Assembly (NCBI GenBank): GCA_041660865.1
Contig: JBAZVO010000002.1
Span: 153,395 to 217,394 of the forward strand
Direction: 5' to 3'
DNA: 64,000 bases
Source: Candidatus Woesearchaeota archaeon
GTDB lineage: Archaea; Nanobdellota; Nanobdellia; Woesearchaeales; 21-14-0-10-32-9
This document shows, piece by piece, positions 1 through 38,675 of the stretch. A program made the position numbers and the translations under genes. The notes under the pieces are model-generated. The model was given only the letters and a program-made list of their open reading frames with translations. It was not told where the DNA came from and did not search any database. Positions within the stretch are counted from its first letter, which is position 1; the number at the start of each line of letters is the position of its first letter.

Positions 1-2
1 TA

Positions 3-530
<528 letters not shown>

Positions 531-3216: not shown

Positions 3217-4245
3217 ATGAAGGATAGCCACAAAGAAATTGAACTTAAAGGAACAGAAATTGAAGAACTTGATGAAACTTCAACTCATTTAAATCAATCT
3301 ATTTGGACTGAAAAATATAGACCTAGTGAATTTTCTGAAATTAAAGGTCAAGAAGAAATAGTTAAAAGAGTTAAAGCATTTGTTGAAACTCAAAATATGC
3401 CTCACATATTATTTTCGGGCCCACCAGGTGTTGGAAAAACTACACTTTCACTTGTAATTGTTAAACAAATGTTTAAAGATAACTGGAGAGAAAATTTTCT
3501 TGAACTTAACGCATCTGATGAAAGAGGAATAGATGTTGTTAGACAAAAAGTAAAAGACTTCGCAAGAACAAAATCCATGGGAAATGCACCATTTAAAATC
3601 ATATACTTAGATGAGTCGGATGCTTTAACAAAAGAAGCACAACAAGCACTTAGAAGAACTATGGAAAATTATACTCAAACAACAAGATTTATTTTATCTT
3701 GTAATTATAGCAGTAAAATTATTGATCCTATTCAAAGTCGATGTGCAGTATTCAAATTTAGACCTCTTTCCAAAAAAGATGTTTATGATATAATTGATCA
3801 CATATCTAAAAAAGAAGGTTTGAAAATAAGTGAAAAAGCAAAAGAAGCACTCTATTATGTTTCTGGCGGAGATTGTCGAAAACTTGAAAATCTGATGCAA
3901 AGCACAGCCTCAATGGGAAGTAAAATAGAAGAAGAAAATATTTATGCTATTGCAAGTTTTGCTGAACCTAAAGAAATAATTGAAGTTCTAGAAGCGTGCG
4001 TTAAAAGCGATTTTGAATTAGCAAAAAAGAAACTTCTTGATACAATGTTAAAACAAGGTCTTTCAGGTCTTGATGTTATTAGACAAATACAAAAAGAATG
4101 CTGGGGCGCAAAAGCTGATAATAATATAAAACTTCAAATGGTTAAAGAATGTGGAGAAGCTGAATTTAGAATGGTTGAAGGTAGCGATGAATTCATCCAA
4201 CTAGAAGCCCTTCTTGCAAAGTTTGTGCTGTTAAATGTGAAGTAA
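3217..4245 (+). CDS. rfcS: Replication factor C small subunit
   Basis: WTEKYRP (RFC box II), GPPGVGKT Walker A, IIYLDESD Walker B, and the QSRCAVFKF SRC motif. Length is 342 aa. Confidence 0.92.
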   Translation: MKDSHKEIELKGTEIEELDETSTHLNQSIWTEKYRPSEFSEIKGQEEIVKRVKAFVETQNMPHILFSGPPGVGKTTLSLVIVKQMFKDNWRENFLELNASDERGIDVVRQKVKDFARTKSMGNAPFKIIYLDESDALTKEAQQALRRTMENYTQTTRFILSCNYSSKIIDPIQSRCAVFKFRPLSKKDVYDIIDHISKKEGLKISEKAKEALYYVSGGDCRKLENLMQSTASMGSKIEEENIYAIASFAEPKEIIEVLEACVKSDFELAKKKLLDTMLKQGLSGLDVIRQIQKECWGAKADNNIKLQMVKECGEAEFRMVEGSDEFIQLEALLAKFVLLNVK

Positions 4246-5263: not shown

Positions 5264-6208
5264 TTACTCAGGTGAGTGCTCTATAAGTATAGATGTGTCA
5301 ACAAACTTAAAGTAAGCATATGCCAATTTTATGTTAAATGGTTGTATTCTATTGTTTCTATTAACATATGTAACAGTACAACTTACATCTCGTGCTTGAC
5401 CTGGAACAAGAGTTATATATCCTGCATTTGATGTTCCGCCAGATAAACCAACACATTTTACTGAATCAATTGTACTCGCTCCTAAATCAGATACACTAAC
5501 AAATACTTTATTCTCATTTGAAGTTATTCTTTCACATTCACTATCTGATTTGTATATTTCTCCATTATCCATATTTTGTACAGTAAATGTAAATCTTGTT
5601 TTATCAGCGCCGGCAGTTGATTGTTTCAAACTAGTTATTTGAACAGGTCCTCCTGATGTTGATAATGATCTATCAGCATTTACTTGACATAAATCATCTA
5701 CTTTATTTGAATTAAAGTTTTCTTTTACACATAATTCAGCAGCAGCTTGAGTTTCATATTCATAACAAATATCTGCTCTTATAGGAAATGTTCTTGATGC
5801 AACTTCTACATCTTGATAATTAAATCCTGGAAATGTTACAGATACAACTGGCGGAGCAATTACTGTTCCATCAGGATTTTTTATATTCGCGTCTATTTTT
5901 TCAGGAGGTGATTTTTTAAGTGTTGCTATTGTTTGATCAAATGACTCAGGTGGAAATCCGCTTAATTTTACATAAACATCTTCAATTGCAACAGCATATT
6001 CTCCTCCATTTGTAATATCAACTATGACATCAAATTCTTGTTGTTTATTATCAGGAGTTGATGCAGGTGGCGCATTTGCATAAAATGCTATGTCAAGTCC
6101 TTTTACTCCACCAATAAATCCTGTGGATCCGTTGTTTGTTGTTGTGGTTGAACATGCAGCCACAAACATTGCTATCAATAAAAGCAAAGCGAGTATTGCC
6201 TTTCTCAT
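5264..6208 (-). CDS. Secreted lipoprotein-like protein, paralog family member (314 aa)
   Basis: Signal peptide MRKAILALLLLIAMFVAACS with a lipobox-like Cys. Shares ICYEYET...C...C...SGGPVQITSL and a terminal Y-x-Y beta-hairpin with the three upstream gene products. Confidence 0.7.
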   Translation of the reverse strand: MRKAILALLLLIAMFVAACSTTTTNNGSTGFIGGVKGLDIAFYANAPPASTPDNKQQEFDVIVDITNGGEYAVAIEDVYVKLSGFPPESFDQTIATLKKSPPEKIDANIKNPDGTVIAPPVVSVTFPGFNYQDVEVASRTFPIRADICYEYETQAAAELCVKENFNSNKVDDLCQVNADRSLSTSGGPVQITSLKQSTAGADKTRFTFTVQNMDNGEIYKSDSECERITSNENKVFVSVSDLGASTIDSVKCVGLSGGTSNAGYITLVPGQARDVSCTVTYVNRNNRIQPFNIKLAYAYFKFVDTSILIEHSPE

Positions 6209-6305
6209 TTTCGTTACCTCCTCAAATAATATGTATCATATTATCTTTATTTAATATATTTTTAACTATTTTATTATTTAATTTAATATTATTAATTTAA
6301 TATTT

Positions 6306-7616
6306 TTAATTTAATTTTCTTATTGTTAATTGCTGTGAAATAGTTTCTTCATAACCATACCATAATTCCATTCTTAATGGTATAGCATACGCGCTACCTA
6401 CATTATCAGCATCACTCATATCATATCTGCAAATAAATCTTGCATCTTTGGTTGTCGGATCAAGTCTTATTCTATAATAATTCGTACAATCAAGAGCTTT
6501 TGTTCCTATGTATGCATATCCTATGTAAACTGTATTTAACATGTTCGCTTTTACACTTCCAGGCATATAAGGACTACAACTCTCCATATATCCTGCATCC
6601 CAAACAGTTCCGGGGCCTATATTTTTTATTGTTATATCAAGAACAACTTCTTTTCCTGTATTTGTTTGTTGAAGTCTTGTAACAGCTACAGGTGCGCCTT
6701 GACTTCCGCCCCAAGTATAAGTTGAAGATGTACAAACTTTTTTCTCAGTTGAAAATGGATCAGGATCAATACAAATCATAGGACTTACAAAAGTTGTATA
6801 ACCATAACATGATTTTAATTGATAAGGTATTCTAAAATAATCTTGTCCTGCAGGCCAAGGTGCAATCATTTGAACTTGAAATGTTTTGAAATCTATATCT
6901 CCTCCTGGAGATACGGCATTATCACCTTTAAGAGTAAATGTACTTCCACCTATGGCTTCAAAATTCAATGAACTAATAACCATCATTAATGATCTACCAT
7001 AATTCATTACTCCAAAATCAGTTCCTATTCCGAAGTTCAAAATACCTTCATCATTCCATGCAATTTGAAGACTGCTAAGAGGAATATTCCATCCAAAACT
7101 TTTTGCTAAAGTCTCAATTGATTGAGCACCAATATTTAATCTTGTTGTTCCTCCAAATTGACTATATGAACTTCCAAGACAACCAAATAAGAAATTCCAA
7201 TTTCCGACTTCGTTATCTAAACTCATGACATCAAAAAAACAAGAACCATGATTTTTATTTATATTAACACAATTTTTTGATGTTGATGATACTTCACATA
7301 TTTTAAACATATCACCACTAAAACCTGATAAGAATACGGCGCCATAAGAATCTGATGCGCCATCATTTTTTAATCGAACATTAAAATCCATTGTATTTCC
7401 ATCTAGATTTGCCAAATCAGAAGATCTATAATAAAATGTTGATTGAGGATTATCAAGATACATCATAACTCCTCTTGAGCCTGTGTAAAATCTACAACTA
7501 TCTCCTTCGCTGCATTTACCTCTATTATCTCCTGAAAAACCTGAACAACCAGCAACAACTAGAGTTACAAGTAATAAAATCACTAGAACTGAACCCTTTA
7601 CAATGGACTTTCTCAT
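6306..7616 (-). CDS. Secreted lipoprotein-like protein, paralog family member (436 aa)
   Basis: Signal peptide ending VVAGCSG. Contains the motif SCYGYTTFVSPMICIDPDPF...VCTSSTYTWGGSQGAPVAVTRL and ends LRMELWYGYEETISQQLTIRK. Confidence 0.7.
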   Translation of the reverse strand: MRKSIVKGSVLVILLLVTLVVAGCSGFSGDNRGKCSEGDSCRFYTGSRGVMMYLDNPQSTFYYRSSDLANLDGNTMDFNVRLKNDGASDSYGAVFLSGFSGDMFKICEVSSTSKNCVNINKNHGSCFFDVMSLDNEVGNWNFLFGCLGSSYSQFGGTTRLNIGAQSIETLAKSFGWNIPLSSLQIAWNDEGILNFGIGTDFGVMNYGRSLMMVISSLNFEAIGGSTFTLKGDNAVSPGGDIDFKTFQVQMIAPWPAGQDYFRIPYQLKSCYGYTTFVSPMICIDPDPFSTEKKVCTSSTYTWGGSQGAPVAVTRLQQTNTGKEVVLDITIKNIGPGTVWDAGYMESCSPYMPGSVKANMLNTVYIGYAYIGTKALDCTNYYRIRLDPTTKDARFICRYDMSDADNVGSAYAIPLRMELWYGYEETISQQLTIRKLN

Positions 7617-7749
7617 TCTGCACCCTCTTAATTATCCTCTTTTTAATTAATATATAAACTTTTGTCTTCTTTCGTTAATATTTAATCAATATTAGTTATT
7701 TAAATATGATATTTAAATTAGTAAATTATTAAATTTTATTTTATTTAAA

Positions 7750-8847
7750 TTATGATACCCTCATAATTCTAACATCCCTTATAGTTGTTACTTTATAAAA
7801 ATATTCTGCTTCCAATTTTAATGGAAGCTCATAATTTCTATTTAATTCAAATTGACTCGGAACATCTTTTTCATCTATCCAACATCTGACACTTCCTTCA
7901 TTTGAATACATTTTTATTTCAGGTCTCGCGCATGTTAAAGGAATATTTCCAAGCATCGCGCTTATTCTTATGGCTTCACCTTTAGACGCAGGTCCCTCAG
8001 TACATGGATTTTCTATTTCATTTGACGCAAGTATTACTCCATTTTCAGCATTTTGAAAATAAATTCTAAAATTAGGCCTTAATATAATACTTTCACCTTC
8101 TTCTATTCCTTGACCTATACCTTCAAGGCCTCCTGAAGAATTTACAATAGGAACAGACCTTGTAATCGGATCAGTTACAACCCCTACAGGAATCATATCT
8201 ACATCCATTTTATTAACAATTACAGGTGCACCTTGACCTGAATATGTATAAGTGTTTTTATTTTTACAAATAGGAGTTTTTTCAAGCCCGTATAAATCTG
8301 AATCTATACATATACTTTCAGCAAAGTATGTTTTATATTGATAACAAGCACTTATTTCAATTCTAGTTGTGGGCGTTTCTCTTGTTCCGAGTATTTTATT
8401 TGCTTTTAGAGATACAATAGGAATTATTGTTTTTTCACCTATTGGCCAAACTGTTGATTTACCTGAAAGATATAAGGACATATACTCATCTTTAGCAAAT
8501 ATAGAATCTGTAGGTTTGCCTAAAATTTCCAAATAAACATCATCTACATTAATTGAAATCATTATAGGTTCATCATACATTTTTTTATCAGGAGTAAACG
8601 CGCCTTTATTCCATATTTCTGCAAGAATTAACATTTCTGATGATTCATAAATTTCTAACGGAGGATTGTTTTTTGTGAATTGAACAGTAACTCCTTGAGT
8701 TCCTGTATATATATTAACAGGCCCAACAGGATTATTTCCTGAGCAACTTGCAATAAATAAAGAACTTAAAATTAACACGAAAATCATACAACTTCTAAAT
8801 ATTATTCTGAATATTGAATTTTGATTTGATAAATTTAATTTGCTCAT
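7750..8847 (-). CDS. Secreted lipoprotein-like protein, paralog family member (365 aa)
   Basis: Signal peptide ending FIASCSG. Contains the motif SACYQYKTYFAESICIDSDLYG...ICKNKNTYTYSGQGAPVIVNKM. Its start overlaps the upstream stop by 1 nt (TAATG). Confidence 0.7.
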   Translation of the reverse strand: MSKLNLSNQNSIFRIIFRSCMIFVLILSSLFIASCSGNNPVGPVNIYTGTQGVTVQFTKNNPPLEIYESSEMLILAEIWNKGAFTPDKKMYDEPIMISINVDDVYLEILGKPTDSIFAKDEYMSLYLSGKSTVWPIGEKTIIPIVSLKANKILGTRETPTTRIEISACYQYKTYFAESICIDSDLYGLEKTPICKNKNTYTYSGQGAPVIVNKMDVDMIPVGVVTDPITRSVPIVNSSGGLEGIGQGIEEGESIILRPNFRIYFQNAENGVILASNEIENPCTEGPASKGEAIRISAMLGNIPLTCARPEIKMYSNEGSVRCWIDEKDVPSQFELNRNYELPLKLEAEYFYKVTTIRDVRIMRVS

Positions 8848-11189
8848 TATTGTGCTCCAGGTGTTTTTTGTACAGTTAATGGTATTTGTTTTGTTAATTT
8901 ATAATCATAATGAACAGTTCCAACTATTGATGTTATTGCAGGCGTATTAGCGCCTGGAATTATTTGAGATACTTTTTCTTTAGATATTTCAACATTACAA
9001 TTTAAAGTCATAAATGAACCTGAAAGGTTTAAATTTTGATTTGTGTTTTTAAATGTATAAATTTTATATCCTGGAACTAATTCATCATTAACTATTGTCG
9101 GTTCAACAGGCGCAGTACATTTATTGACAGTAAAATAATTAGGCATTCTAAGAGTATAATTATGCACTCTTACAACTTCGCCTTTAGCACCATTAACAGA
9201 TGGTTTATCATCAATAGTCATACCTAAAGGTAAATAATTATTTGATTCAGAACTTATCGCGAATGGCATTTCAAGTGCATCATCCATTCCAATCATCACA
9301 GGTCCGCTTGTGTATATTGTTTTTGTTTTTTGAGGAATTCCGAGTTTAATTACTGGATTTTCGCCGCTAGTTCTTAAGTATACTAAGTAATTTCTATCAA
9401 TAAAGAAATAAGGTTTATATGCCCATGTTTCGAATTCGAATTCTAATTTTAAAAATATTTGATATCGACCTGCAGGAAGTAAACCCTCTCCAGTACCTAT
9501 TCCGTCATTTCCAGGTTTTTCAAAAGTACAAATAACTCCTCTTTGATCTTCTATGTATATATTTTCAAGTATTGGCGGATCCGTTACTCCTTGATATATT
9601 ACTGATTTATTAGTTGTGCTTTGAGCATAACAAGATGTTTTTATTGTTACATTATCAACAAAACTTCTAGCCCTTACATATCCATATGCAACAACAGGCA
9701 TAGAATCATATTGGGTTCCTGTTAAATGAAAATCAGTAATAAAAACACCAGTATTCACAGTGTTTTGTTCTACTTGCCCCGTATAATACGAACTCATAGT
9801 ATCGTTTTTCCAAGCCTTATAATCGCCTTTGAGATCTTTACCTATTCCATTTATTGCATCAATTCCATTTTTCCAAGTAACACTTACAAATTCAGTAAAT
9901 ATTTCAACTGATGCTGTAGGATTAAATCCTGTATCTTCGGAGCCTGGAATTATTGATACACTTGGTACAACTATCGTTGACATTAACCAAAAAATAAAAA
10001 ACAATGCTAGCAAGATAAAATAAGCACCAACCCATTTAGATGGTCTTAATAATATTTTAAGAAGTCCTTTAGAGGATGCTTTTCCACTAGAATAATCTAA
10101 ATTTATTCCTAAATAATACTTTAAGTAAATTAACCAAACTGGGATTGCTAAAAATATTGTTCCTATTATATTTTTAACATTGGTTGTGACATCAAGCGCA
10201 TTTAACCCATTTGAAAGTATTGGAATTAAAAAAACAGGAATAAATGAAACTACACAAAAGAACGTTAATAACCCAAAAAAAATATTAACATTTAATACTA
10301 TGCATGCAAACATACTTAAAAGTAAATATGCCATTACTCGATTAATCATAACAGATTGTGACATTGAAAAATTCCATATGAATGCATCAACTAAATGAAC
10401 AATTATTGCGAATAAAAAAAGCGATTCAATTAAAAATTGTTTATGAAATTCGCCATTAGATAAATCTTCTATTTTATCTTTTAATTTTTTATTACCATTA
10501 GAAAATATTGAGCCTGCAGCCTTAAAAAAGCCACCTATTTTTGAAGGTCTTCGAGAAGAGTTGGAATTAGTCGAATTGGAATTGTTAAAATTAGAATTAT
10601 TGAAATTATTATTTTGCCACCCTGCATTCGCTGAAGATTCATCTCTTTGAGAGTTAAACTCATTATTTGTAGAATTTCTAGAAGACGCAGGTCTTTGTGA
10701 AAATGCGGGACCACGAGTTCTACGAACTTGAGAATTTCCAACTAAGCCAGTGGAATTTTGATTAGGTATTTCTTCAAATGGAGTATCTTCAGCTATTGCT
10801 GAAAGATTAAGTTTTGTTCTAGATTCAGATTTATCTTTCTCACTTATAACTCTCATATTACTTTGCTTTTTTTTAATATCTTGTTCGATAACTTGAGAAG
10901 CAATTACGCCTTCTGGTCCCGCCATATTAGCAGCAGCTGCAAGTTGTTGCTCTTTAGCAATTTCTTTTTCTATTTTTTCAACTTTTTCAACTTCTTTTTT
11001 TAATTTATCACGTATTTTTTTCCAGTCCTTTAATTGATCTTCCAAAGACTTGATTTTATTTTGTTGAGCTAGTTTATTATCAGAATCTGACATAGAATTT
11101 AATTTTTCTTTTTCAGCGTTTAAATTATTAGAAATGGTATCCACTATTAATATGGCATAATTGTAATTCTTCTTAACATCTCCACCCAT
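8847..11189 (-). CDS. Large membrane protein: N-terminal coiled coil, Asn/Ser low-complexity linker, polytopic TM block, C-terminal ectodomain related to the downstream lipoproteins
   Basis: 780-aa ORF. The N-terminal heptad-like K/E-rich region is SLEDQLKDWKKIRDKLKKEVEKVEKIEKEIAKEQ. The linker runs NNNFNNSNFNNSNSTNSNSS. About 6-7 hydrophobic helices span roughly aa 250-410. The ectodomain has FEFETWAYKPYFFID...IYTSGPVMIGMDD and terminal HYDYKLTKQIPLTVQK. Confidence 0.7.
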   Translation of the reverse strand: MGGDVKKNYNYAILIVDTISNNLNAEKEKLNSMSDSDNKLAQQNKIKSLEDQLKDWKKIRDKLKKEVEKVEKIEKEIAKEQQLAAAANMAGPEGVIASQVIEQDIKKKQSNMRVISEKDKSESRTKLNLSAIAEDTPFEEIPNQNSTGLVGNSQVRRTRGPAFSQRPASSRNSTNNEFNSQRDESSANAGWQNNNFNNSNFNNSNSTNSNSSRRPSKIGGFFKAAGSIFSNGNKKLKDKIEDLSNGEFHKQFLIESLFLFAIIVHLVDAFIWNFSMSQSVMINRVMAYLLLSMFACIVLNVNIFFGLLTFFCVVSFIPVFLIPILSNGLNALDVTTNVKNIIGTIFLAIPVWLIYLKYYLGINLDYSSGKASSKGLLKILLRPSKWVGAYFILLALFFIFWLMSTIVVPSVSIIPGSEDTGFNPTASVEIFTEFVSVTWKNGIDAINGIGKDLKGDYKAWKNDTMSSYYTGQVEQNTVNTGVFITDFHLTGTQYDSMPVVAYGYVRARSFVDNVTIKTSCYAQSTTNKSVIYQGVTDPPILENIYIEDQRGVICTFEKPGNDGIGTGEGLLPAGRYQIFLKLEFEFETWAYKPYFFIDRNYLVYLRTSGENPVIKLGIPQKTKTIYTSGPVMIGMDDALEMPFAISSESNNYLPLGMTIDDKPSVNGAKGEVVRVHNYTLRMPNYFTVNKCTAPVEPTIVNDELVPGYKIYTFKNTNQNLNLSGSFMTLNCNVEISKEKVSQIIPGANTPAITSIVGTVHYDYKLTKQIPLTVQKTPGAQ

Positions 11190-11211
11190 CTTTTTTACAC
11201 CAAGACTTTAA

Positions 11212-12408
11212 TTAAACGTATTTGAGTCTTATTTTTATTTCAGTCATAGACATATCCTGCAAAGGTTTTATTTCAACAGAATTTGTTCCAGGCTTTACAT
11301 GGCCATCAATTGGTTTAGTTTCTGCAATTCTTGCAGTATTAAATCCTAATTTTACGCCATTAATAAATATCTCAAATCGTTTCTGATTTGTATTTGGAAA
11401 TGTCATATCAAGAAACATGTCAACATTTGATCTTAATGCAAAATCTTCTGGATCATCAGGATTTGTAAAATTACCCTCATCGAGTTCGAAGTAATATATT
11501 GGATTAATATTTGTTTCAAACTTATTTGTAAGTCTTAATCTATCAATTAATATTGATCCTTTATCAACCCTAAATGTTAATTGATTTTGGCCTTCTCTTA
11601 ACATTCCACTTGCAACTGGCGCATAATTATACATTCCACAATCAGGAATTCCTTTGAAAATTAAAACACCATTAATTGAAACTTCTAAATTAGATATTTC
11701 ATAAAGATTACAAACCGGACTATATCTTAATTGTGCAGATTTTAAATTCGAAATATCTTTTTTAGTTAAAGATAAAGATTGTACACTTTCACTTTGCGAT
11801 TTATCTGTAACATCAGCTGTTATTTTTACGTCCTTTAATCTGTATTCATTATATCTCCAGAACGCAACACCAGGACTTGAAACTGAAATTCTTATTTCAT
11901 TACTAGCTTGAAGTTTTTTAGAATCAATTGCTATTGGCGGTGAATTGCCTACTTGAAGATTGGAATCAAGAATTGTTTCACCATTAAGAGTTATATGCAA
12001 TGCACCTTCAGCGGTTTCAATGTTAAATGATAACATCACATTATCCGTAACTTCTGGATTCGCAGTAAATAATATTACTTCTTCTTTTTTCTCAAAAGCT
12101 GAATTTTTAACATACAATGATGACCTAGATGTTAAAACTTCTCCTCTAACTTTATTGCTTATTGTAAATGCTGGAAAATCATAATCTATTTGATCATCTG
12201 CAATATAATTAAGAACACCAGGACTTTCTTTCATTAAAATTCTGCCAGTTGCTGAACTATTTGTTATGTGATTAGAATTATTAGAAAGTAATGCTTCTCT
12301 GTCTGCTGGCGGTAAAAATAAGATATACAACACAATTAGCGCCGTTATTATAATAATTAGAATAGCTGCATTTCCGCCTGCTTGACCAAACTTATTTAGC
12401 TTAACCAT
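11212..12408 (-). CDS. Membrane-anchored extracellular protein with pilin-like (class III-like) N-terminus
   Basis: The likely start is the ATG at 12408 (MVKLNKFGQAGGNAAILIIIITALIVLYILFL); the track ORF extends to 12459. Three internally similar segments are present (HITLNGETILDS, LEVSINGVLIFKG, FEIFINGVKLGFN). The gene lies 22 nt upstream of the 780-aa gene. Confidence 0.65.
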   Translation of the reverse strand: MVKLNKFGQAGGNAAILIIIITALIVLYILFLPPADREALLSNNSNHITNSSATGRILMKESPGVLNYIADDQIDYDFPAFTISNKVRGEVLTSRSSLYVKNSAFEKKEEVILFTANPEVTDNVMLSFNIETAEGALHITLNGETILDSNLQVGNSPPIAIDSKKLQASNEIRISVSSPGVAFWRYNEYRLKDVKITADVTDKSQSESVQSLSLTKKDISNLKSAQLRYSPVCNLYEISNLEVSINGVLIFKGIPDCGMYNYAPVASGMLREGQNQLTFRVDKGSILIDRLRLTNKFETNINPIYYFELDEGNFTNPDDPEDFALRSNVDMFLDMTFPNTNQKRFEIFINGVKLGFNTARIAETKPIDGHVKPGTNSVEIKPLQDMSMTEIKIRLKYV

Positions 12409-12497
12409 AATTCTCCCTCTAATAATCTCTCTGTTAAATATGAACCTAATAGATAGCAACTAAGAACTTTAATATATAAACGTTGCGTTTTAACGGG

Positions 12498-12622
12498 CTC
12501 TGTAGAAAGTCTTTTTCTGCAGGCGCCAGCTTTCGAAATTAAAATCGTATTTATTATCGAGTCTAATTTTTTCGAGATTTTTTCTATAAGCTGGCATGCC
12601 TGCACAGACTTTTTCTACAGAG
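12498..12622. repeat. ~125-nt hairpin (MITE-like) element, copy A
   Basis: Termini are CTCTGTAGAAA...TTTCTACAGAG. Internal arm segments AGTCT, TGCAGGC and CCAGCTT are also complementary. A near-identical copy lies at 34656-34781, and the element is GC-richer than its surroundings. Confidence 0.8.
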
Positions 12623-12732
12623 GCAACAGATAGCTTAGTTAACAACGCAGCCGTCAACATGCCTTCGGCGCTTGAGCGAATACATTCTTATAAATATTCA
12701 AACCTGAAAAAATTAGAAAAAATATCAACTCC

Positions 12733-12769
12733 ATAAACCTACTCAAGCCAAGACTTCGGATCCTTCAAC
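12733..12769. repeat. Duplicated copy of the 3' end of top6A (direct repeat of 12881-12918)
   Basis: ATAAACCT-ACTCAAGCCAAGACTTCGGATCCTTCAAC matches ATAAACCTTACTCAAGCCAAGACTTCGGATCCTTCAAC with one indel. Both copies are preceded by AAAAAATTAGA. Confidence 0.85.
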
Positions 12770-12799
12770 ACAACGGCAGCGCCCGTTGACAACGCACTA

Positions 12800-12831
12800 G
12801 AGTAGAACACTCGCTACGCTCAGTTCTACTC
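12800..12831. other. Perfect 9-bp stem hairpin downstream of top6A
   Basis: GAGTAGAAC - 14-nt loop - GTTCTACTC. It sits between the two copies of the top6A 3'-end repeat. No T-run follows on the minus strand, so a terminator role is uncertain. Confidence 0.35.
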
Positions 12832-12887
12832 CTTAATCCCTTACAGACATTTTATTTCAAAAGAACTTAAAAAAAATTAGATAAACC

Positions 12888-13979
12888 TTACTCAAGCCAA
12901 GACTTCGGATCCTTCAACTTTTCTGGAAGATAATTACTAATAACAAAATTAAGTCCATGCTTTGCAAGTGCTTGCTGTTCTGCTCTTTTCCCTTTTTGCA
13001 TTAATTCTTTTAACGCTACTTGCCAAGACTTGTATCTGTGTACAAAAGGATCGTTCTTTAAACCATCTTTAATTCTTTTGTTATCAACATCTTTTAGAGG
13101 ATGCGTTGGAAGTTTGTATTCTTCTATGTCTCTTGGCGTAATTCCGAGGAATTTTGCTCTTGGAACACAAAAGAATTCATTTATGTGTGCGGCATTTCCT
13201 GAGCCGACTTTTAATGTTCTATAAATATTCAAAAATCCGTATGGATCTCCATCAGTAAATACGAAAACATCAATATTGGCTTCATCGCTTAATCTTCTTA
13301 TGAATCGTCTACATGCTCTTGTTGGAACTCCACTCATACTAACAAGTATACAATTCGCCTTTTTCCAATATGTATGTTTATTTAACCTTTCAAACATACC
13401 TTGAGTTTCTATTGCAAGAACAAATTTTGCTTTAGTTTCAAATCTAAGATGTTCAACATCTGAGGGAATAGAATATGATCCGCTTCCAAATTTCGTACAA
13501 TCAATTTTTAATTCTTTTCCAGTATTTGGATCTTTATCAACAACAATTAATTCACCAGCAACACTTCCCCCGTGTTCATCAGCTATAAAACCTAATTGTT
13601 CACGATTAACTCCAAACATCGCTTCAATATCATCCATTACAGCATCAGATTCTGGTTGCTCGCTAAATCTTGCTTCGCCCCAGTTTTTACTTACGTAATA
13701 GGCTTCTCTTTTTGTTGCAATATCTACTGTTTCAATAAGATTTTTTGATAAAGCCATAACTCTTAGAGTTTGCGCGAAAGTTTTTACAGTGTTTGCAGTC
13801 AGAGTTCTTTTTTTTATTTGACCTTTAAGTTCAAAGTAACCATCTTTTTCATTGTAAAAAACGTTATTAAGACTTCTAACTGGCGCTTCAAGTTCTGCTT
13901 TTCTTCCTTGTAAAACATCTTGTCTTATGCCTTCAGCAGTACCTTTTATTTTTTTTATAACATCAGCTACAATAATCAC
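12888..13979 (-). CDS. top6A: DNA topoisomerase VI subunit A (Spo11 family)
   Basis: REAYYVS (catalytic Tyr region) and Toprim motifs [11 protein letters not shown] and FTDGDPYG. The GTG start overlaps the top6B stop (GTGA). Confidence 0.93.
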
Positions 13980-15922
13980 TCATCCCCTTCAACATCTTTT
14001 GATTTCTTTTTGGATTTCTTTTTAGAAGAATCTTTTTCTTCTATAGTTTCTCCATAACCATCATAATCATTGCCTTCTTGTTCTTCTTCCTCTTCTTTTC
14101 CAATATTTGCAAAATCTTCATCATATTCTTCATTTTTATTTGGATCAAAAGACATATCTTCGAGTTTGCCTCTTGTTTTTTCCATAAGAATTGATAACTT
14201 ATCTTCTATATCTTTTTTTTGCGAATCTGTTAATGAAAGTATTTCTTTTAATGCATCAGAAATATGAGGCATATAAAGTTCTATGTAACTTCTCTTTTTA
14301 AGTTCGTCACCAACTCTTCTTTTTTTACTTAAATATTTGTAAAGCTCACGTCCAACTTCTTGAACTGCAAGTTTTATTTCTTTAATCATTTCAGGATAAT
14401 GAGCTATTGCTTCTTTTGCTTCTGATGTGAATGGAACCCAAACTGATGCTACATGAACAACAAGAACAACTGGACCTTGAGGCATATTACTTCCTGATTG
14501 TTGAAGCCCATATTGTTTCCAATTAGTACTTGATACGGCTTCACTTACAGCGCAAGCGCCTTGTTGATAAAGTAATGGAACTCTGTTCGCGAATCTCATT
14601 ATATTCATCGAAGAATCCTTAGGAAGTGTTCCTCCATATGCTATTGCAGCCTCTATTAAAAAAGGATTTCCTCTATAAACATCAGGACTTCTACTAACTG
14701 ATGCATAAAATTCTGCGTTAACTTCTTTTTTTAACCCTTTTTCTAAAAGCTCTGAACCGATTGGAACAATACAATCTGTTGGAGGCATCATTATTTTTGT
14801 TCGCCTTATACCCTCAATTAATTTTTCCGCCATATCTCGACTAACATCGCCAGGTTTTGTGTTGCTTAACATAGATGAATTTTCAAGTATTTCTTCTGCC
14901 GTTTTATCTCCAACTCTTGAAAAGTCTTGCATTAAACATTGTTTAACATTTTTAGCAGTTGTATTACTTAACATCTTAATTAACATACCAATTTCTACAC
15001 CGTAAGGATGAGGTTTTATCTCATGTGCTTGTTTAGGTTTTTGATCTGTTGCTCTAACAAGCATTATTTGTTCTCCTTTTGGAGGTTGATAAATTATTGT
15101 AACATGAGGATTAATTATCGCGGTTTGTTTTAAATACTCATCAACTGATTGAGATCCTTTCGTATATGATGCTTCAAGTTCTAATTCTACTCTTGTTCCT
15201 GTATCTTTATGCCACTCTTTTGTTCCTTTAGCAATTATTTCAGGTTCATTTTTCTGCGTATTTATTTTTAATTCAAAATAATTAGCAGGTTCTGATGGAT
15301 GAATTTTACTTAATATTTTTGTAGATTTGCCTGTTGTTAATTGAGAATACATAACGGCCGCACTTATTCCAATTCCTTGCTGTCCTCTTTGCATTTTTAA
15401 TTTGTGAAATTTACTTCCATACAATAACTTTGCAAATATTTTAGGAATTTGTTTTTCAACTATGCCTGGTCCATTATCTTCGACAACAATTCTAAATCTA
15501 TCAGTGCCCATTTCTATTACTTCAACTACAATTTCAGGCAAAATATCTGACTCTTCACAAGCATCAAGACTATTATCTACAGCTTCTTTTATTGTTGTTA
15601 AAAGTGATTTTCTTTTATTATCAAAACCTAAAAGATGTCTATTCTTTTCAAAGAATTCAGCAATACTAATTTCTCTTTGACTCTTTGCAAGTTCATGCGC
15701 TTTTGCGTTTGCTGATGATTTTTCGGGTTTAATTTCAGAATTATTTGATAATTGTGTTTGAGAATTACTTGTGCTTGTTGAAGATTTATTCACAGGTTTA
15801 ATGATGGGGTTATTGATATCTTTAATTGTAATTTTACTTGCATCTATCGAACTTTTATCTGTAAATGAATCCAAAGAAACTGTTTTTTCTGCTCCTTTAT
15901 CTCCCTTTTCTTTCTTCTCCAT
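13976..15922 (-). CDS. top6B: DNA topoisomerase VI subunit B (GHKL ATPase)
   Basis: Bergerat-fold motifs [15 protein letters not shown] and GQQGIG, plus a transducer domain. The first ATG is at 15922 (the track's TTG is at 15937). A Ser/Asn-rich N-terminal extension of about 80 aa and an acidic/Lys-rich C-terminal tail are present. Confidence 0.92.
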
Positions 15923-16261
15923 AAATTTAAAGAACAACGCAAGGGTTTAATAAACTTTTTGATTAATAAATTTTGTACATAAAACTAAGAAATTAAACAA
16001 ATTAGTTTAATTAAAAAAAATATGACGACGAATTATAAAAAACAAATCAATACAATTTCCTCACTTGCCTCAACAACTATATTTAATTAGGTCTTGATAA
16101 AAAATAAAAAAAACGCGAATTAATATTAACTAAAGTTCCTATTCCATTCGTTACACTCATCAAAATTCCCGAGCTAACTTTTCACAAAACCAAAAACTTA
16201 AAATACTATTGTCTTCTTTGAGGTTATAAGGGATTGTGAAAAGGGTTAAAAGAGGATTTTA

Positions 16262-21746: not shown

Positions 21747-24413
21747 TTACTCATCATCCTCTTCTGATGCGCCTTTCTCAACAGGAATAAATAATTCTTC
21801 TTCTTTAACATCTTTTATTTCAGATGAATCATCTTTTTTTAATTCTTTAATTTCTTTTTTTTCTTCTTGATGTTTTTGCTCTTCTTCGCTTATAACTTCT
21901 GCCATATTTTCGTCATTTATAATTTTAGCAGCAGAAATTAGAGCATCACCTGATCTTAATTTTATTATTCTTACTCCTTGAGTGTTTCTTCCAATGACCG
22001 ATAAATCTTTCAAAGAAATTCTAATTATCATTCCTTGTTTTGAAACAAGCATTAAATCTTCAGAGCCAGTAACTGCTCTTATCGCAACAACGGGACCTGT
22101 TTTATCCGTCATATTTATGTTTCGTACTCCTTTTCCTCCTCTATTAATGAGGCGATATTCCGAAGCATCAGTTTGTTTTCCATAACCATTTGCAGTTAAT
22201 GTTAGAACTAAAGTATTATCTTCAACTAAAATCATACCAACAACTTCATCTTTTTCATTAAGTCTAATACCAATAACTCCTTTACCTGTTCTTCCAATTG
22301 ATCTTGCATCTTCTTCTTCAAATCGACAAGCAAGACCTTCTCTTGTTGCAAGTAAAATTTGTTTTTTACCATCAGTTAAAGAAACAGAAACTAAATCATC
22401 ATTCTCTTCAAGAGTTATAGCAATAATTCCACCATTTCTAGGTTTGGAATAAGCCATCAAATCAGTTTTTTTTATTATTCCTTTCTTTGTTGCAATAAGT
22501 AAAAAGTGATTTTCATCAAATGATTCTACAGGAATAATGGCACTTATTTTTTCATCTGCATCTATATTAATAAGATTAACTATAGGTTTACCTTTACTTT
22601 GTCTTGATGATTCTGGAATTCTATAAACTTTAAGCCAATGCACCATTCCAGTATTTGTAAAAATTAAAAGATGTGTATGAGTATTTGCAACAAAAACTCT
22701 TTCTATGAAATCATCCTCTTTACTATCGGCACCAATTACACCAACGCCTCCTCTTCTTTGCGTTTTATACGTATCAAGGGATGCGCGTTTTATGTAGCCT
22801 TCATGACTTAGAGTTACAACAACATCTTCTTCAGGAATTAAATCTTCTAAATCTAAATCTTCATCTTCATTTTCTAAAATCGATGTTTTTCTTTCATCGC
22901 CATATTTTTCTATAATTTCTTGCTGTTCGCCTTTTATTATTTTTAATATCTCTTTATCATCTGAGAGTATTTTAGTTAATTCAGAAATTATGACTTTAAT
23001 ATCCATAAAATCCTTCTTTATCTTTTCAGTTTCAAGTCTTGCAATCTTTTGCAATTTCATATCTAAAATAGCTTGACTTTGAATTTCAGATAATGAATAT
23101 TTCTCCATTAAAGAAGTTTTAGCGTCAAGTGCTGAACCTGCTTTTTTTATAAGTTCTATTGCTTCATCAATATGTTCAAGAGCAGTCATTAATCCCTCTA
23201 AGATGTGTGCTTTTTCTTCAGCTTTTCTTAAATCATACTCTGTTCTTTTACGAACAACTACTTGTCTATGTTTTAAGAATTCTTCAAGCAATCTTTTCAA
23301 TGGAAGAATTCTAGGTTTATTATCGACAAGACTTAAAAGAATTATTCCGAATGTTTCTTGTAATCTTGTAAAACTATAAAGCTGATTTTTAACAACATCG
23401 ATATTTGCATCCTTTTTTAACTCTATAACTATGCGCATACCATTTCTATCAGATTCATCTCTTAAATCAGAAATTCCTTCTATTTTTTTATCTTTTACAC
23501 ACTCAGCAATTTGTATTAAAAGATCCGCCTTACTCATCATATAAGGTATTTCATTTATAATTATTCTATTTTGTTTATTATGAACTTCATCTTTCATTCT
23601 AGCTTTAACTAACGCTTTTCCTCTTCCTGTAGTGTATGCTTGAAGTACTCCTGCTCTACCTTGAATTATTCCGCCAGTTGGAAAATCAGGACCTTTAACA
23701 TCAACACATAAGTCTCTATCCGTCGCTTCAGGATTATCGATTAATCTTATTACAGCAGAACATATTTCTTTAATATTATGAGGAGGAATATTTGTCGCCA
23801 TACCAACAGCAATTCCCGTACTACCGTTAATTAAAAGATTAGGAACTTTACATGGAAGAACAGTTGGTTCTTTTAAGCTACCATCAAAATTATCAGTAAA
23901 ACGAACTGTTTCTTTATCTATGTCTTGCAATAATTCATCTGAAAGTTTTGATAATCTAGCTTCAGTATATCTCATAGCAGCAGCACTATCACCATCAACA
24001 GAACCAAAATTTCCTTGTCCTTGAACAAGAGGATATCTTAATGAAAAAGTTTGCGCCATTCTAACTAAAGAATCATAAACTGCAGTATCGCCGTGCGGAT
24101 GATATTTACCTAGAACTTCTCCTACAATTCTTGCACATTTTTTATAAGAAGTATTCCACTTCATACCAAGATCATTCATTGCAAAAAGAATTCTTCTATG
24201 AACTGGTTTTAAACCATCTCTAATATCAGGGAGTGCTCTTCCAACAATTACTGACATAGAATAATCTAGATATGCTGAACGCATTTCTTCTGAGATTGAT
24301 GAAATAAGTATTTTGTCATGATCTTCGATTCCTGCTTGAACTACAGGCACTTCTGAAGTTATTTTTTCTTCTACTTTATCGACTGAATTTTCAGTGTTTT
24401 TATCCTCTTCCAT
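21747..24413 (-). CDS. gyrA: DNA gyrase subunit A (bacterial type IIA topoisomerase)
   Basis: [27 protein letters not shown] (catalytic Tyr), a C-terminal beta-pinwheel with QRRGGVG (GyrA box), and an acidic tail. The first ATG is at 24413. Confidence 0.93.
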
Positions 24414-24594
24414 AACATAAATAAGCAAAACTTCTTATTTTATAAGTGTTTTGGATATAGACGACAAAAAAGAAAAATAAACAAAAAAATAACAAAATAA
24501 AAATCTGAATAAAAAGCTAAATAACGCTTAACAAATATTAATTTTGCTTAAATTCATATTTTCAAAAAAAAATAAATAAAAACTTAATAGACAT

Positions 24595-27200: not shown

Positions 27201-29183
27201 ATGAGGGAAATAAATAAAACAACAAAAAATAAATTTGTGACAAAAGTAGTTTTACTATTTTTGTTTGCACTTATGATAATTACCATAAATGCAAAAATAA
27301 ACATAGCAACACAAAATTTAATGGGTTTACAAGGAGATGTAAATTTAGAGGGCGTACCTGTGCAAACAGGCAATCTCACTGTTTTAATTTGGAATCAATC
27401 TACTGGAGGACAACTAATCTATAATTCGACTTCAGATTATTTAAATTCAATAATCGAGGGTAGATTTGATGTGATGCTTGGAAATGGAACTCAAGAACTC
27501 ATATTAGAATACGGAAAAATTTACTATATGGATTTAAGAGTTAACAATCAAGATTTAGATTTTGATGGTATAGAACGACGCGCATTTCAATCAAATGTAG
27601 GAAATATAACAAGTGCTAGTATAACTCCCTCAACAATTACTAACACACAAATAGCAGACGGCACTATAACAACACAAAAGCTAAGCACGATAAGTAAAAG
27701 TAAAATCAACACAACAAATACCTGGATTGAATCAGAAATTCCCTCTCTGAGCGCATCTTGGACAGGAACAATTGACTCTTCAAGAATTTCTTCACAAACA
27801 TCCCTTAATGTGAATAATTCTGAATATCTTCAAGGATATTCAGCAACAGCATTTCTAACAAATGATTCGAGTTTATCGTCAAGAATAAATACATTAAATT
27901 CGACAAAAGCAAATATAGGAACTTGCTCCTCAGGACAAGTAATTATGAACATAACAAGTACAGGAGTTGAATGTGTAACACAACAAGGAGGCCAAACATT
28001 TAATCAAAACCTTGATACAACAAGCAATGTTCAATTTAGAAATATTACTGCATCAAATATTAGTTCAACAAATTTATTTGGTAATTTAAATTGGTCTTAT
28101 TTGTTAAATATACCTAGTTTTGTAAAAGACTATGCTTCTGATTTATCTCTAAAATTAGATTTAACTGATCAGAGATATAATGATACAACAAAAATAAATT
28201 CTATAAATACAACCGCAAATATACAAAATTTAGGATTTAATACAACAACACAACTAAACAACATATATTATGGAATTAATAATATAAATAATTTTGTAAA
28301 TATAACAATAGGAGATAATAGATATCTAATAATAGCAGATCAAAGATATAATGAAAGCACAACAATAACTACAATTAACAATAGCCTGAACACAGAAACA
28401 ACAAATCGACAAAATAACGACACAACACTAAGCGCAGAAATTGATAGTGTAAATACATCTTTAATAAATGAAATTGGAAATAGAACTGCCGCTGATGAAA
28501 ACATAAATCTAAGTGATGTAAGATTAATGTCAACAGACGCAAATCCTAAACTTAGTAACTCGCTAGTTTTAGGAAGAGATGCGTTTTTATTTGATGATTT
28601 TTTAAGTGGTGCAGTTAGTGGAAGATATATTATTCTTGGAACACAAAGTGCAAATGTTGTTGATACAAATAATTGGGGCGTTTATAATTATGCAACAGGC
28701 ATAACTATCGGGAATGATGCTGGATTTTCTATTGGAGGATCAACAACAACTACAAGTCAAATATTCAACATAACCAATGTTATCAAATTTGAATTGCGCG
28801 CAAAACTTGTTGCGACAACAGGTCAAAGAACATACATAGGCCTTATGAAAACCGCCACAAGTCAAAATTTCGGCGCAATTAACGAAGGAGCAGTATTCTT
28901 TTACGATAGCACATCAAATGCTAATTGGTCTGCAAGAAATTGTAAAGCGGGTACGTGCACAGATGTAAATACAAATGTAAGTACAAACACTAATTTTCAT
29001 ACATTTACAATAAAACCATCTACAAGTGGCGTTGCATATTATATCGACGGAGTCTTTATTACAAATATAACCACAAATGTTCCAACTGCACGTGTAGCGT
29101 GGATAGGTATGGAAACAGAAACAACAGACACAACGGCAGACAACACAAGAGTAGATTATGTTTTATTTGAAGCCACAAGATAA
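27201..29183 (+). CDS. Large secreted/anchored fibre-like surface protein with C-terminal jelly-roll (lectin/LamG-like) domain
   Basis: N-terminal signal/anchor and very many N-x-S/T sequons. Contains ITPSTITNTQIADGTITTQKLS and repeated DQRYN(D/E)(T/S)T segments reminiscent of tail-fibre shafts. The last ~200 aa are beta-rich (FHTFTIKP...AYYIDGVFI...RVDYVLFE). The start lies 1 nt after the upstream stop. Confidence 0.65.
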   Translation: MREINKTTKNKFVTKVVLLFLFALMIITINAKINIATQNLMGLQGDVNLEGVPVQTGNLTVLIWNQSTGGQLIYNSTSDYLNSIIEGRFDVMLGNGTQELILEYGKIYYMDLRVNNQDLDFDGIERRAFQSNVGNITSASITPSTITNTQIADGTITTQKLSTISKSKINTTNTWIESEIPSLSASWTGTIDSSRISSQTSLNVNNSEYLQGYSATAFLTNDSSLSSRINTLNSTKANIGTCSSGQVIMNITSTGVECVTQQGGQTFNQNLDTTSNVQFRNITASNISSTNLFGNLNWSYLLNIPSFVKDYASDLSLKLDLTDQRYNDTTKINSINTTANIQNLGFNTTTQLNNIYYGINNINNFVNITIGDNRYLIIADQRYNESTTITTINNSLNTETTNRQNNDTTLSAEIDSVNTSLINEIGNRTAADENINLSDVRLMSTDANPKLSNSLVLGRDAFLFDDFLSGAVSGRYIILGTQSANVVDTNNWGVYNYATGITIGNDAGFSIGGSTTTTSQIFNITNVIKFELRAKLVATTGQRTYIGLMKTATSQNFGAINEGAVFFYDSTSNANWSARNCKAGTCTDVNTNVSTNTNFHTFTIKPSTSGVAYYIDGVFITNITTNVPTARVAWIGMETETTDTTADNTRVDYVLFEATR

Positions 29184-32000: not shown

Positions 32001-32091
32001 GGGACTTTAGCTCAGACTGGGAGAGCGCCACGCTGAAGACCTAAAAAGGACAGAGACGTGGAAGTCCTGGGTTCAAATCCCAGAGGTCCCA
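32001..32091 (+). tRNA. tRNA-Phe (GAA) with 17-nt canonical (37/38) intron
   Basis: Acceptor stem GGGACTT/AGGTCCC, D arm GCTC-AGACTGGGA-GAGC, anticodon stem CCACG/CGTGG with loop CT-GAA-G[intron]A, and T arm CTGGG-TTCAAAT-CCCAG. No CCA is encoded and a T-run follows. Confidence 0.93.
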
Positions 32092-34435: not shown

Positions 34436-34655
34436 CGTATTATTTCCAGCCTTTAATTAGCCTGTAATTTATTGTGAATACTATCTAATATTTAAATATA
34501 TTTGATTGTTTTTACTCTCGAGTGAAGTTTTATTATCATCAATAAGTATTATTAATTTAATTCATTTTAACTATTTACATTCAGATAATTTGCACACGAT
34601 AATCATACAATAATTATACACGATAATCACACAATTAATGCACACAACAATCGAG

Positions 34656-34781
34656 CTCTGTAGAAATTCTTTTTCTGTAGGCGCCAGCTTTCGACATTAA
34701 AGTCACATTTATTATCGAGTCTAGTTTTTTCTAGATTGTGCTCTATTAGCTAGCATGCCTGCACAGACTTTTTCTACAGAG
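34656..34781. repeat. ~125-nt hairpin (MITE-like) element, copy B
   Basis: CTCTGTAGAAATTCTTTTTCTGTAGGCGCCAGCTTTCGACATT...GCATGCCTGCACAGACTTTTTCTACAGAG is collinear with copy A at 12498-12622, with scattered substitutions. Confidence 0.8.
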
Positions 34782-34922
34782 TCCGACAATCCCCCATAAA
34801 TAAAAAACAAAAAAATCATGTGAGTCTATCCTTCACAAGATTGAAAAAGCCACAATCATTATCAACGATTACAAAAAGAACTAAAATTAAAAAACAGAAC
34901 AATAAATACCATAGGTGAAAAA

Positions 34923-38581: not shown

Positions 38582-38675
38582 GCACCTGTAGCGCAGCTTG
38601 GATAGCGCGGCAGCCTCCTATGTGAACTAAACGAGAGCGAGTTGCAGGTCGTGGGTTCGAATCCCATCAGGTGCG
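38582..38675 (+). tRNA. tRNA-Arg (CCT) with 19-nt canonical (37/38) intron
   Basis: Acceptor stem GCACCTG/CAGGTGC, D arm GCGC-AGCTTGGATA-GCGC, anticodon stem GCAGC/GTTGC with loop CT-CCT-A[intron]A, and T arm GTGGG-TTCGAAT-CCCAT. Confidence 0.9.

Follow-up and report, generated by a model that had tools for sequence, protein, structure and literature searches.

Woesearchaeota and Pacearchaeota are among the most widespread uncultivated archaea, and how they attach to a partner, and whether that partner is a bacterium or an archaeon, is an open question. Archaeal S-layer proteins are usually assembled from tandem Ig-like domains, S-layer proteins are typically heavily N-glycosylated, and archaeal FlaF/FlaG-type stator proteins join a pilin-like N-terminal helix to an Ig-like domain. 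Bacterial envelope machines use specialised lytic transglycosylases (VirB1, EtgA and FlgJ type) that open the cell's own wall locally. Pacearchaeota and Woesearchaeota were found by Castelle et al. (2021) to share 51 lineage-specific protein families ('module 98'), mostly of unknown function, and to encode large extracellular SLT proteins (fam00969), from which bacterial hosts were proposed (PMC8204110). Lipoproteins and the candidate lipidation enzyme AliA have been reported as prevalent in DPANN archaea, with some gaps for AliA (PMC12462473); sugar-binding proteins of archaeal bindosomes carry class III signals (10.64898/2026.04.22.720090); and in Woesearchaeota metagenome-assembled genomes (MAGs) S-layer genes are annotated separately and expressed highly (PMC11606122). 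Here, we report a cluster of five genes, A–E, on a 64,000-nt stretch (the window) of contig JBAZVO010000002.1 from a Candidatus Woesearchaeota archaeon (assembly GCA_041660865.1), a chromosome segment of 29% GC from a Nanoarchaeia (Woesearchaeota-type) genome. The folds of the encoded proteins are ordinary but the system is not: it combines a base with five transmembrane helices, at least three lipoprotein paralogues, a pilin-like subunit and recurrent fusions to murein hydrolases. Genes A–E constitute a real and apparently undescribed system, whose function we infer below from its architecture, its conservation and its variants in other genomes.

The five genes lie co-oriented on the minus strand, between the gene for the small subunit of replication factor C (RFC) and that for subunit A of topoisomerase VI (TopoVI-A), and the window contains further housekeeping genes (Ski2-type helicase, gyrase A, Cdc48 and GatB). 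All five open reading frames (ORFs) named in a preliminary description of this DNA, made from the letters alone, are present in the ORF list, and the junctions reported there (a 1-nt TAATG overlap, a 22-nt gap and otherwise about 100–130 nt) agree with our measurements: A and B are separated by 22 nt, the start of C overlaps the stop of B by 1 nt (TAATG), and the C–D and D–E spacers measure 133 and 97 nt. A–E may form one operon, with internal promoters conceivable at the C–D and D–E spacers because both contain TTTATATA-like boxes.

To characterize the distribution of the cluster, we combined homology searches with two sets of gene contexts. A word-indexed search returned 18–34 relatives, all from 'Candidatus Nanoarchaeia' MAGs or metagenomes. 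With a profile of the module shared by C, D and E, we retrieved 2,852 cluster representatives (50% identity) at E ≤1e-3 and 1,148 at E ≤1e-30, and the module is N-terminal in every one of the top 145 matches. The first context set comprised 9 loci from MAGs or contigs for which DNA was available, and one further locus represented by its gene list. The second comprised 80 metagenomic loci, fetched by the pattern of a distant sub-family and 26–44% identical to that sub-family's query, whose ORFs were scanned with hidden Markov models (HMMs) of A, B, C, D and E and with the window's TopoVI, RFC and Ski2. Synteny across related genomes, which had been proposed as a check, is borne out by both sets. 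The five-gene order is kept in the 9 loci with DNA, and 80 of 80 metagenomic loci are consistent with the arrangement A-B-C-(D or second C-like)-E-(second E) after which RFC comes in the opposite orientation; their observed orders are substrings of this arrangement, shorter contigs showing part of it only. A-B-C, at the minimum, can be seen in each metagenomic locus that is 9 kb or longer, the lipoprotein paralogues never number fewer than three, and RFC stands immediately downstream, in opposite orientation, in each of the 38 metagenomic loci whose sequence extends to that point. The RFC proteins of these loci are only 57–77% identical to that of the window, and the conservation of synteny is therefore deep. 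Over 69 loci the B–C junction has a median of −4 nt and measures ≤10 nt in 60; B and C are, as a rule, translationally coupled. In close relatives the flanking RIO1, KH, TopoVI-B/A, RFC and Ski2 genes are likewise syntenic, and in more distant loci, which often lack TopoVI as a neighbour and contain additional inserted genes, A-B-C-D-E are still contiguous and co-oriented. Proteins A, D and E retain 36–43% identity where TopoVI-A retains 77–81% (Table 1), and variation is concentrated in the cytoplasmic domain of B, in a hairpin insert of C and in C-terminal extensions, a pattern that reads as a conserved core with a variable periphery. By these comparisons the cluster looks like a core feature of Woesearchaeota/Pacearchaeota-type Nanoarchaeia.

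Proteins C, D and E each carry a signal-peptide-like segment followed by a lipobox (F-I-A-S-C35 in C, V-V-A-G-C24 in D and F-V-A-A-C19 in E), and all three satisfy the criterion [LVI][ASTVI][GAS]-C after a signal-peptide-like h-region. The lipobox cysteine is nearly invariant among their orthologues, and 136 of 145 distant family members likewise carry a lipobox-like motif, which substantiates the lipoprotein-like signals seen in the preliminary description. The motif is shared with other archaeal lipoproteins, whereas the mature domains of C, D and E fall outside any described lipoprotein family; it would specify an anchoring mechanism, not a function, and lipid modification is predicted. Pairwise comparisons indicate that the three are true paralogues: C and D match at a BLASTP E of 1e-8 (hhalign probability 98.6%, E 1.3e-15), C and E at 3e-7 (97.9%, E 4e-13, full length over 276 columns) and D and E at 5e-5 (94.8%, E 5.5e-8). 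In an alignment of 146 sequences, the invariant or near-invariant columns follow in the order Y.GT.G after the lipobox, an N.G strand in domain 1, CY.Y.T, C.D.D, a further Cys and GQGAPV, and then a second N.G strand, two to three more cysteines and a terminal Y.Y strand. The motifs that had been aligned by eye (CY.Y.T, two more cysteines, GQGAPV, the N.G strand and the terminal Y.Y) coincide exactly with such columns. The module has six conserved ectodomain cysteines, which fits three disulfides; disulfide formation is predicted. More generally, A–E each have a predicted export or anchor signal and an even number of conserved ectodomain cysteines.

Protein C has 18 close homologues, all from Nanoarchaeia MAGs or metagenomes. 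An AlphaFold2 model built with a 33-sequence alignment (predicted local distance difference test (pLDDT) score 84.9, predicted TM-score 0.73) is all-β, with N-terminal and C-terminal strand groups that form a two-part Ig-like body. The second domain contains very long strands (residues 160–181, 209–235, 241–266 and 339–362), and its hairpin 209–266 is lengthened by ~30 amino acids in the C subfamily only, being short in D and E. Protein D, with 13 cysteines, has an N-terminal half of its own, and its C-terminal 165 amino acids are homologous to domain 2 of C and E; E is homologous to C over its full length. Mean column identity among orthologues is 71% for D and 72% for E.

Protein B has the layout read from its sequence in the preliminary description, with a cytoplasmic coiled coil, an Asn/Ser linker, a membrane block and an ectodomain (Table 1). 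Hydropathy and AlphaFold give about five hydrophobic helices, fewer than the six to seven counted there, and this odd number fits an N-in/C-out topology. A model of residues 240–780, built from nine sequences (overall pLDDT 68), comprises five membrane helices of modest confidence (residues 8–32, 39–59, 64–92, 97–122 and 136–167 of the fragment, which starts at residue 240; pLDDT 60–73), two low-confidence helices and an all-β ectodomain at pLDDT ~85. Conserved residues of the membrane block include H262/D265, R284, Y288, P323, P350, Y355 and P383, and the ectodomain contains four invariant cysteines (C520, C554, C691 and C731). Within B, the N-terminal region is hypervariable. It takes the form of a coiled coil with an Asn/Ser linker in the window and in locus L006, a Cys4 zinc-ribbon-like segment matching DUF7895 (E 9e-7) in L003 (gene 7858–9813) and L005 (8023–9957), and a different small domain or domains in L001, L007 and L008, and it is almost absent from a minimal B of 513 amino acids (P0043).

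The ectodomain of B is probably a very divergent fourth copy of the C/D/E module. The preliminary description had already called it related; BLASTP and shallow profiles do not detect a relation between B and C/D/E, and deep profiles give a weak, colinear match. A comparison by hhalign of 65 B ectodomains from metagenomic loci with 146 C/D/E members yielded P 5.3e-4 and a probability of 30%, colinear over 270 columns, against P values of 0.09–0.29 for the controls (reversed profiles, and protein A against either profile). The alignment pairs YYTGQVE..GVFI of B with Y.GT.GV..F, FEFETWAY with CYPY.T, IYTNGPVMIG with GQGAPVAVT, and the final HYDYKL strand with EAEYFYK. The B ectodomain and C also agree in the order of their predicted secondary-structure elements: a sandwich comes first, at the N-terminus, a long strand follows, and the long Y.Y strand comes last.

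Protein A stands apart from the other four, to none of which it is related in sequence. Its ORF is extendable to an upstream TTG at 12459, which the preliminary description took as the start; the orthologue alignment favours instead the ATG at 12408, shared by all orthologues, and this is most likely the start of a 398-amino-acid protein (MVKLNK...). The N-terminus reads KFG↓QAGGNAA (the arrow marks the putative cleavage site), followed by ~22 hydrophobic residues and LPPADREALL. Among 41 orthologues, K/R stands at −3 in 38, A/G at −1 in 40 and Q at +1 in 38, with K/R at −2 in just 29; 4–8 small residues lie between the site and the hydrophobic run, which starts 5–8 residues after the site, and the ~22-residue hydrophobic stretch is followed by a conserved LPPxxRxxLL. 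Protein A thus resembles archaeal proteins with class III signal peptides (type IV pilins, bindosome binding proteins and FlaF/FlaG) in its basic residues, A/G at −1, Q at +1 and long hydrophobic helix, but differs from them in the spacer of 4–8 small residues, in having no type IV filament (TFF) genes nearby, and in an ectodomain of 350 amino acids that is unrelated to known pilins. The pilin-like N-terminus attributed to the first gene stands in part: [KR]-x-[AG]↓Q followed by a hydrophobic helix is found in ~93% of the 41 orthologues, whereas the spacer is atypical and the Pfam class III signal model does not match A. Judged from these features, the N-terminus is class III (prepilin)-like, yet atypical through the spacer ahead of its hydrophobic run. 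The ectodomain, of ~350 amino acids, is β-rich, with two invariant cysteines (C233 and C257), and a six-sequence alignment of A has a mean column identity of 74%. Profile searches of PDB sequences, including one with a 41-sequence profile, gave nothing significant for A. Its sub-threshold matches are recurrently to galactose-binding or carbohydrate-binding-module (CBM)-like jelly rolls (BetaGal_ABD2 in 5 of 41) and include a sialidase N-terminal domain; we treat this similarity as a lead, not a finding.

Comparisons with known families identify no named system, as had been proposed. None of A–E reaches a curated cut-off in Pfam or NCBIfam, S-layer families included; PHROGs and PADLOC give only marginal matches (best E ~0.003), sequence-profile searches of the PDB give nothing below E 0.1, and CARDB/DUF11 Pfam models do not match even at E up to 1. 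The sole Pfam match at cut-off on a relative is to a domain of unknown function. Neither an ATPase nor a permease or substrate-binding-protein family was detected in or next to the cluster. In a comparison of the window and ~90 related loci, no gene for a TFF ATPase, prepilin peptidase or platform protein was found within or flanking the cluster. Our literature search found no paper describing the A–E cluster.

Structural searches place the proteins in a broad fold class. Foldseek searches of PDB and BFVD with C return generic tandem Ig-like proteins at a TM-score of ~0.2 (integrin alpha legs, SspB, complement C3 MG, cohesin and DUF11, among them a Tupanvirus DUF11 protein at E 3.7e-5 and TM-score 0.2). 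With B, the matches are the AglB/STT3 C-terminal domain, transglutaminase barrels and integrin legs, again at a TM-score of ~0.2. CfaB and Caf1, which would be pertinent to donor-strand-exchange (chaperone-usher type) filaments such as archaeal threads and bundling pili, are present only among these generic matches. C and the B ectodomain therefore share a fold class with tandem Ig-like/CARDB/DUF11 surface proteins such as S-layer proteins, SspB, SdrG and integrin alpha legs (Foldseek E 1e-5 to 1e-3), and 'N.G' strands occur in both domains of C/D/E too; in contrast to this likeness, the TM-score stays at ~0.2, there is no sequence-level membership, and the six-cysteine pattern with CY.Y.T...GQGAPV is particular to the C/D/E family. 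Three specific identities were considered and rejected. The top Foldseek match of B is the C-terminal globular domain of Pyrococcus AglB/STT3 (3vu1 and 2zag; E 1e-5, TM-score 0.19, root mean square deviation 13 Å), and B is, like this oligosaccharyltransferase, polytopic with a β-rich extracytoplasmic C-terminal domain; B has, however, ~5 transmembrane helices rather than 13, the WWD[YWFN]G motif is found in 0 of 75 B sequences, and no STT3 Pfam model matches. The 27-residue strands of C recall pore-forming toxins, but the long hairpin is a C-subfamily insertion in an ordinary sandwich hairpin, absent from D and E, and Foldseek returned no toxin. A viral or mobile origin is contradicted by the fixed chromosomal position beside core genes in all loci, with no PHROG match and generic BFVD matches. 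The lipobox and the class III-like signal, which bear on anchoring and not on function, and donor-strand filaments aside, each family or system considered is contradicted by at least one defining feature.

A functional indication comes from orthologues in which the cluster has acquired enzymatic domains. Forty-six of 145 family members carry C-terminal extensions, in which a Cys-rich linker leads to further domains, and a Pfam scan of 86 members found the murein lytic transglycosylase domain SLT (family 1, GH23) in five, 3D in three and DUF2272 in one. Within the cluster, four proteins exceed Pfam's gathering cut-off for SLT: the C proteins of L081, which has DUF2272 as well, and of L084, and the B proteins of L088 and L093. 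An HMM built from these four SLT proteins detects the domain in 13 of the 80 metagenomic loci: nine times in B, twice in C and twice in truncated ORFs, probably C-terminal pieces of B, that directly precede C. The SLT domain is appended after the B ectodomain, and its catalytic E-S, GLMQ and AYNxG motifs are intact. All window ORFs lack it by both Pfam and the SLT HMM, and the window's version would be the unarmed core of the assembly. To our knowledge, archaea have no murein, so the substrate of the SLT must be a foreign wall, and its presence on orthologous B and C lends independent support to a role in host contact. As in VirB1, EtgA and FlgJ, the SLT is tied to a multi-subunit envelope apparatus; the parallel is one of analogy, since here the target would be the wall of another cell, and there is no homology between the machines. 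The module 98 and fam00969 work concerned the same phyla, the same SLT/GH23 domain and the same idea of an extracellular protein that binds or degrades the bacterial wall (PMC8204110). It lists families, in contrast, and describes neither a gene cluster nor paralogy, a lipoprotein module or a membrane base, and the proteins of the window, unlike those of fam00969, lack SLT; module 98 plausibly includes the families of A–E.

Taken together, these data suggest how the cluster may work. A–E would be subunits of one membrane-anchored extracytoplasmic assembly. B would form its integral-membrane base, with ~5 transmembrane helices, a lineage-variable cytoplasmic N-terminal domain and an outward β-sandwich ectodomain; C, D and E, as lipid-anchored paralogues of that ectodomain, would pack around or onto it; and A would be a fifth, pilin-like subunit, anchored N-terminally, with its ectodomain of ~350 amino acids. 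The assembly could act as a docking platform that engages the envelope of a host, and where, as in many lineages, the distal C-terminus of B or C is extended by SLT/GH23, 3D or DUF2272, it could breach bacterial peptidoglycan locally in those lineages. In this scheme complex formation, lipid and prepilin processing, disulfides, co-transcription and the host-contact role are all predicted. The scheme develops the earlier proposal of a membrane-anchored scaffold with three paralogues as a host-contact or envelope structure, which gains from the strong mutual HMM matches of C, D and E and the weak but specific one of the B ectodomain, the lack of a characterised family and the deep synteny. We tentatively favour, at a little short of an even chance, the view that A–E form an undescribed heteromeric surface platform that makes contact with another cell's envelope and, in some lineages, bears wall-lytic enzymes. 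More doubtful is the stronger claim that A–E are a lineage-defining machine of Woesearchaeota/Pacearchaeota that docks onto another cell, whose armed versions cut bacterial peptidoglycan and which is unrelated to known secretion, pilus and S-layer systems.

Several points weigh against a host-contact platform. Binding among A–E is presumed; B and C/D/E are weakly related (hhalign probability 30%); the folds, generic sandwiches of Ig-like type (TM-score ~0.2 to everything), carry no functional information; and the window's proteins lack an enzyme domain, so the lytic link rests on orthologues elsewhere (13 of 80 loci). Host-contact proteins, moreover, are usually fast-evolving and variable in copy number, and a conserved, single-copy core among housekeeping genes fits a housekeeping envelope machine equally well. 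The chief rival, unlikely as we judge it, is a housekeeping scaffold of the cell's own envelope, or a structure associated with the S-layer, that has no specific part in host contact. It might be a layer close to the membrane, a component that anchors or spaces the S-layer, or a surface structure associated with shape or division, on which the lytic fusions would be secondary additions to an abundant anchor. The cluster is present, single-copy and syntenic in every locus examined, among replication genes; its core subunits are fairly well conserved; the Foldseek matches are of the generic tandem Ig-like type; and 67 of the 80 loci have no lytic domain. Against such a scaffold, N-glycosylation sequons are all but missing from A, C, D and E (0–0.8 per 100 amino acids; none in the 436 amino acids of D), compared with 4.2 and 5.0 in two other secreted proteins of the window; the S-layer families of Pfam give no match; known S-layers consist of one or two proteins, unlike a set of five different subunits that includes a polytopic base; and in Woesearchaeota MAGs, S-layer genes with high expression have already been annotated separately (PMC11606122).

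The same features admit a device for uptake or transfer, comparable to a bindosome or to lipoprotein-assisted transport, in which B would be a membrane conduit and the lipoproteins and A binding proteins that capture lipids, wall fragments or other nutrients from a host or the surroundings. The class III-like signal of A, as in bindosome sugar-binding proteins (10.64898/2026.04.22.720090), its recurrent sub-threshold similarity to carbohydrate-binding jelly rolls, the conserved polar residues (H, D/E and R) inside the transmembrane helices of B, and the muropeptides that SLT would release all point this way, as do small genomes (a 938-kb contig carries the cluster) and the reported dependence on scavenging (PMC8204110). 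We nevertheless consider it improbable, given that no ATPase, permease or substrate-binding-protein family was detected in or beside the cluster, that the CBM-like matches of A are all below threshold and that the transmembrane block of B is modelled with low confidence. Much the same N-terminus of A could mark a minor pilin or tip adhesin, matured by a prepilin peptidase, of a TFF system encoded elsewhere, with B–E as its membrane and stator partners; the ~93% occurrence of the cleavage motif and helix and the precedent of FlaF/FlaG-type stators speak for this. It is made highly improbable by the hydrophobic stretch placed atypically 5–8 residues past the cleavage site, by the unmatched Pfam class III model and by ~90 loci in which neither the cluster nor its surroundings showed a prepilin peptidase, a platform protein or a TFF ATPase. 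We give the slimmest chance to there being no assembly at all, A–E being five independent secreted proteins held together by a low rearrangement rate of the neighbourhood. Flanking housekeeping genes are indeed also syntenic in close relatives, but A–E stay contiguous and co-oriented in distant loci even where TopoVI has moved away, the B–C overlap is conserved, and four of the five proteins share one module.

If the docking reading is correct, A–E would be the first molecular apparatus proposed for cross-domain (archaeon-on-bacterium) episymbiosis. The locus is a concrete candidate for partner attachment, recognisable between TopoVI and RFC and belonging to a family of thousands of sequence clusters, and the SLT, 3D and DUF2272 fusions on two subunits lead to the prediction that lineages with armed variants are those whose hosts are bacteria. 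Antibodies, cryo-electron tomography labelling and metaproteomics could also make use of it as a target. Should the cluster instead encode a housekeeping structure, this would still be an unknown type of archaeal envelope component, and A, B and the C/D/E module would warrant new protein families, three at the least, even then.

Table 1 Positions in the window of the cluster, its flanking genes and other features, with protein identity (%) between the window and its relatives
Feature	Coordinates	Strand	Basis or content	Identity, closest relative	Identity, most distant relative
RFC small subunit	3217–4245	+	ORF scan		
Gene E, 314 aa	5264–6208	-	ORF list	70	41
Gene D, 436 aa	6306–7616	-	ORF list	70	41
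Gene C, 365 aa	7750–8847	-	ORF list	61	28
Gene B, 780 aa	8847–11189	-	ORF list	51	24
B ectodomain, residues ~421–780	8850–9929	-	All-β, AlphaFold		
B membrane block, residues ~249–417	9939–10445	-	Hydropathy and AlphaFold helices		
B cytoplasmic N-terminal region, residues 1 to ~245	10455–11189	-	Coiled-coil-like K/E-rich segment and Asn/Ser-rich low-complexity linker		
Gene A, 398 aa	11212–12408	-	ORF list; orthologue alignment for start	74	36
Spacer between A and TopoVI-A, 480 nt	12409–12887				
Long-stem hairpin, core	12497–12625				
Long-stem hairpin, second copy	34655–34784				
Topoisomerase VI A and B	12888–15937	-	ORF scan	94 (TopoVI-A)	77 (TopoVI-A)
DNA gyrase A	21747–24428	-	PF00521, E 1e-162		
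660-aa protein	27201–29183	+			
902-aa protein	29241–31949	+			
tRNA match, 91 nt	32001–32091	+	Model positions 1–71		
tRNA match, 94 nt	38582–38675	+	Model positions 1–71		
Tandem paralogue, ~238 aa	32879–33595	-			
Tandem paralogue, ~238 aa	33716–34435	-			

Between A and TopoVI-A, the spacer is rich in GC and shows strong structure on both strands (z −3.3 for minus and −4.9 for plus). It contains a ~130-nt long-stem hairpin, a second copy of which (~90% identity) lies in an intergenic region 22 kb away; Rfam does not match the spacer even at E up to 1, and the hairpin could be a repeat similar to a miniature inverted-repeat transposable element or belong to a small family of unannotated structured RNAs. 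In the window this position holds nothing but the structured spacer, and in some relatives it holds extra genes (L003 4048–6471 (-), L005 4219–6645 (-), and L009 2625–5507 (+) and 483–2015 (-)). The large inserted genes (807–960 aa) have at most a faint Pfam match, and the TopoVI-A/A interval of L009 also encodes a protein with a Por_Secre_tail domain (C-terminal sorting of the type IX secretion system type). On the other side of the cluster, the RFC ORF encodes ~850 instead of ~320 amino acids in two loci (L070 6477–9017 and L088 11499–14063), which suggests an intein or insertion.

Elsewhere in the window, two adjacent genes encode the 660- and 902-amino-acid proteins, which have N-terminal signal or anchor segments, no Pfam match at E ≤1e-5, and 28 and 45 NxS/T sequons. 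They are candidate S-layer or surface glycoproteins, and better S-layer candidates than A–E because they are sequon-rich and A, C, D and E almost sequon-free. The two long tRNA matches are probably intron-containing archaeal tRNA genes. The two ~238-amino-acid tandem paralogues are adjacent and share ~75% DNA identity over ~370 nt (repeat families D1 and D2). Finally, alongside topoisomerase VI, the window encodes a full-length DNA gyrase A of bacterial type, with six GyrA C-terminal blades.

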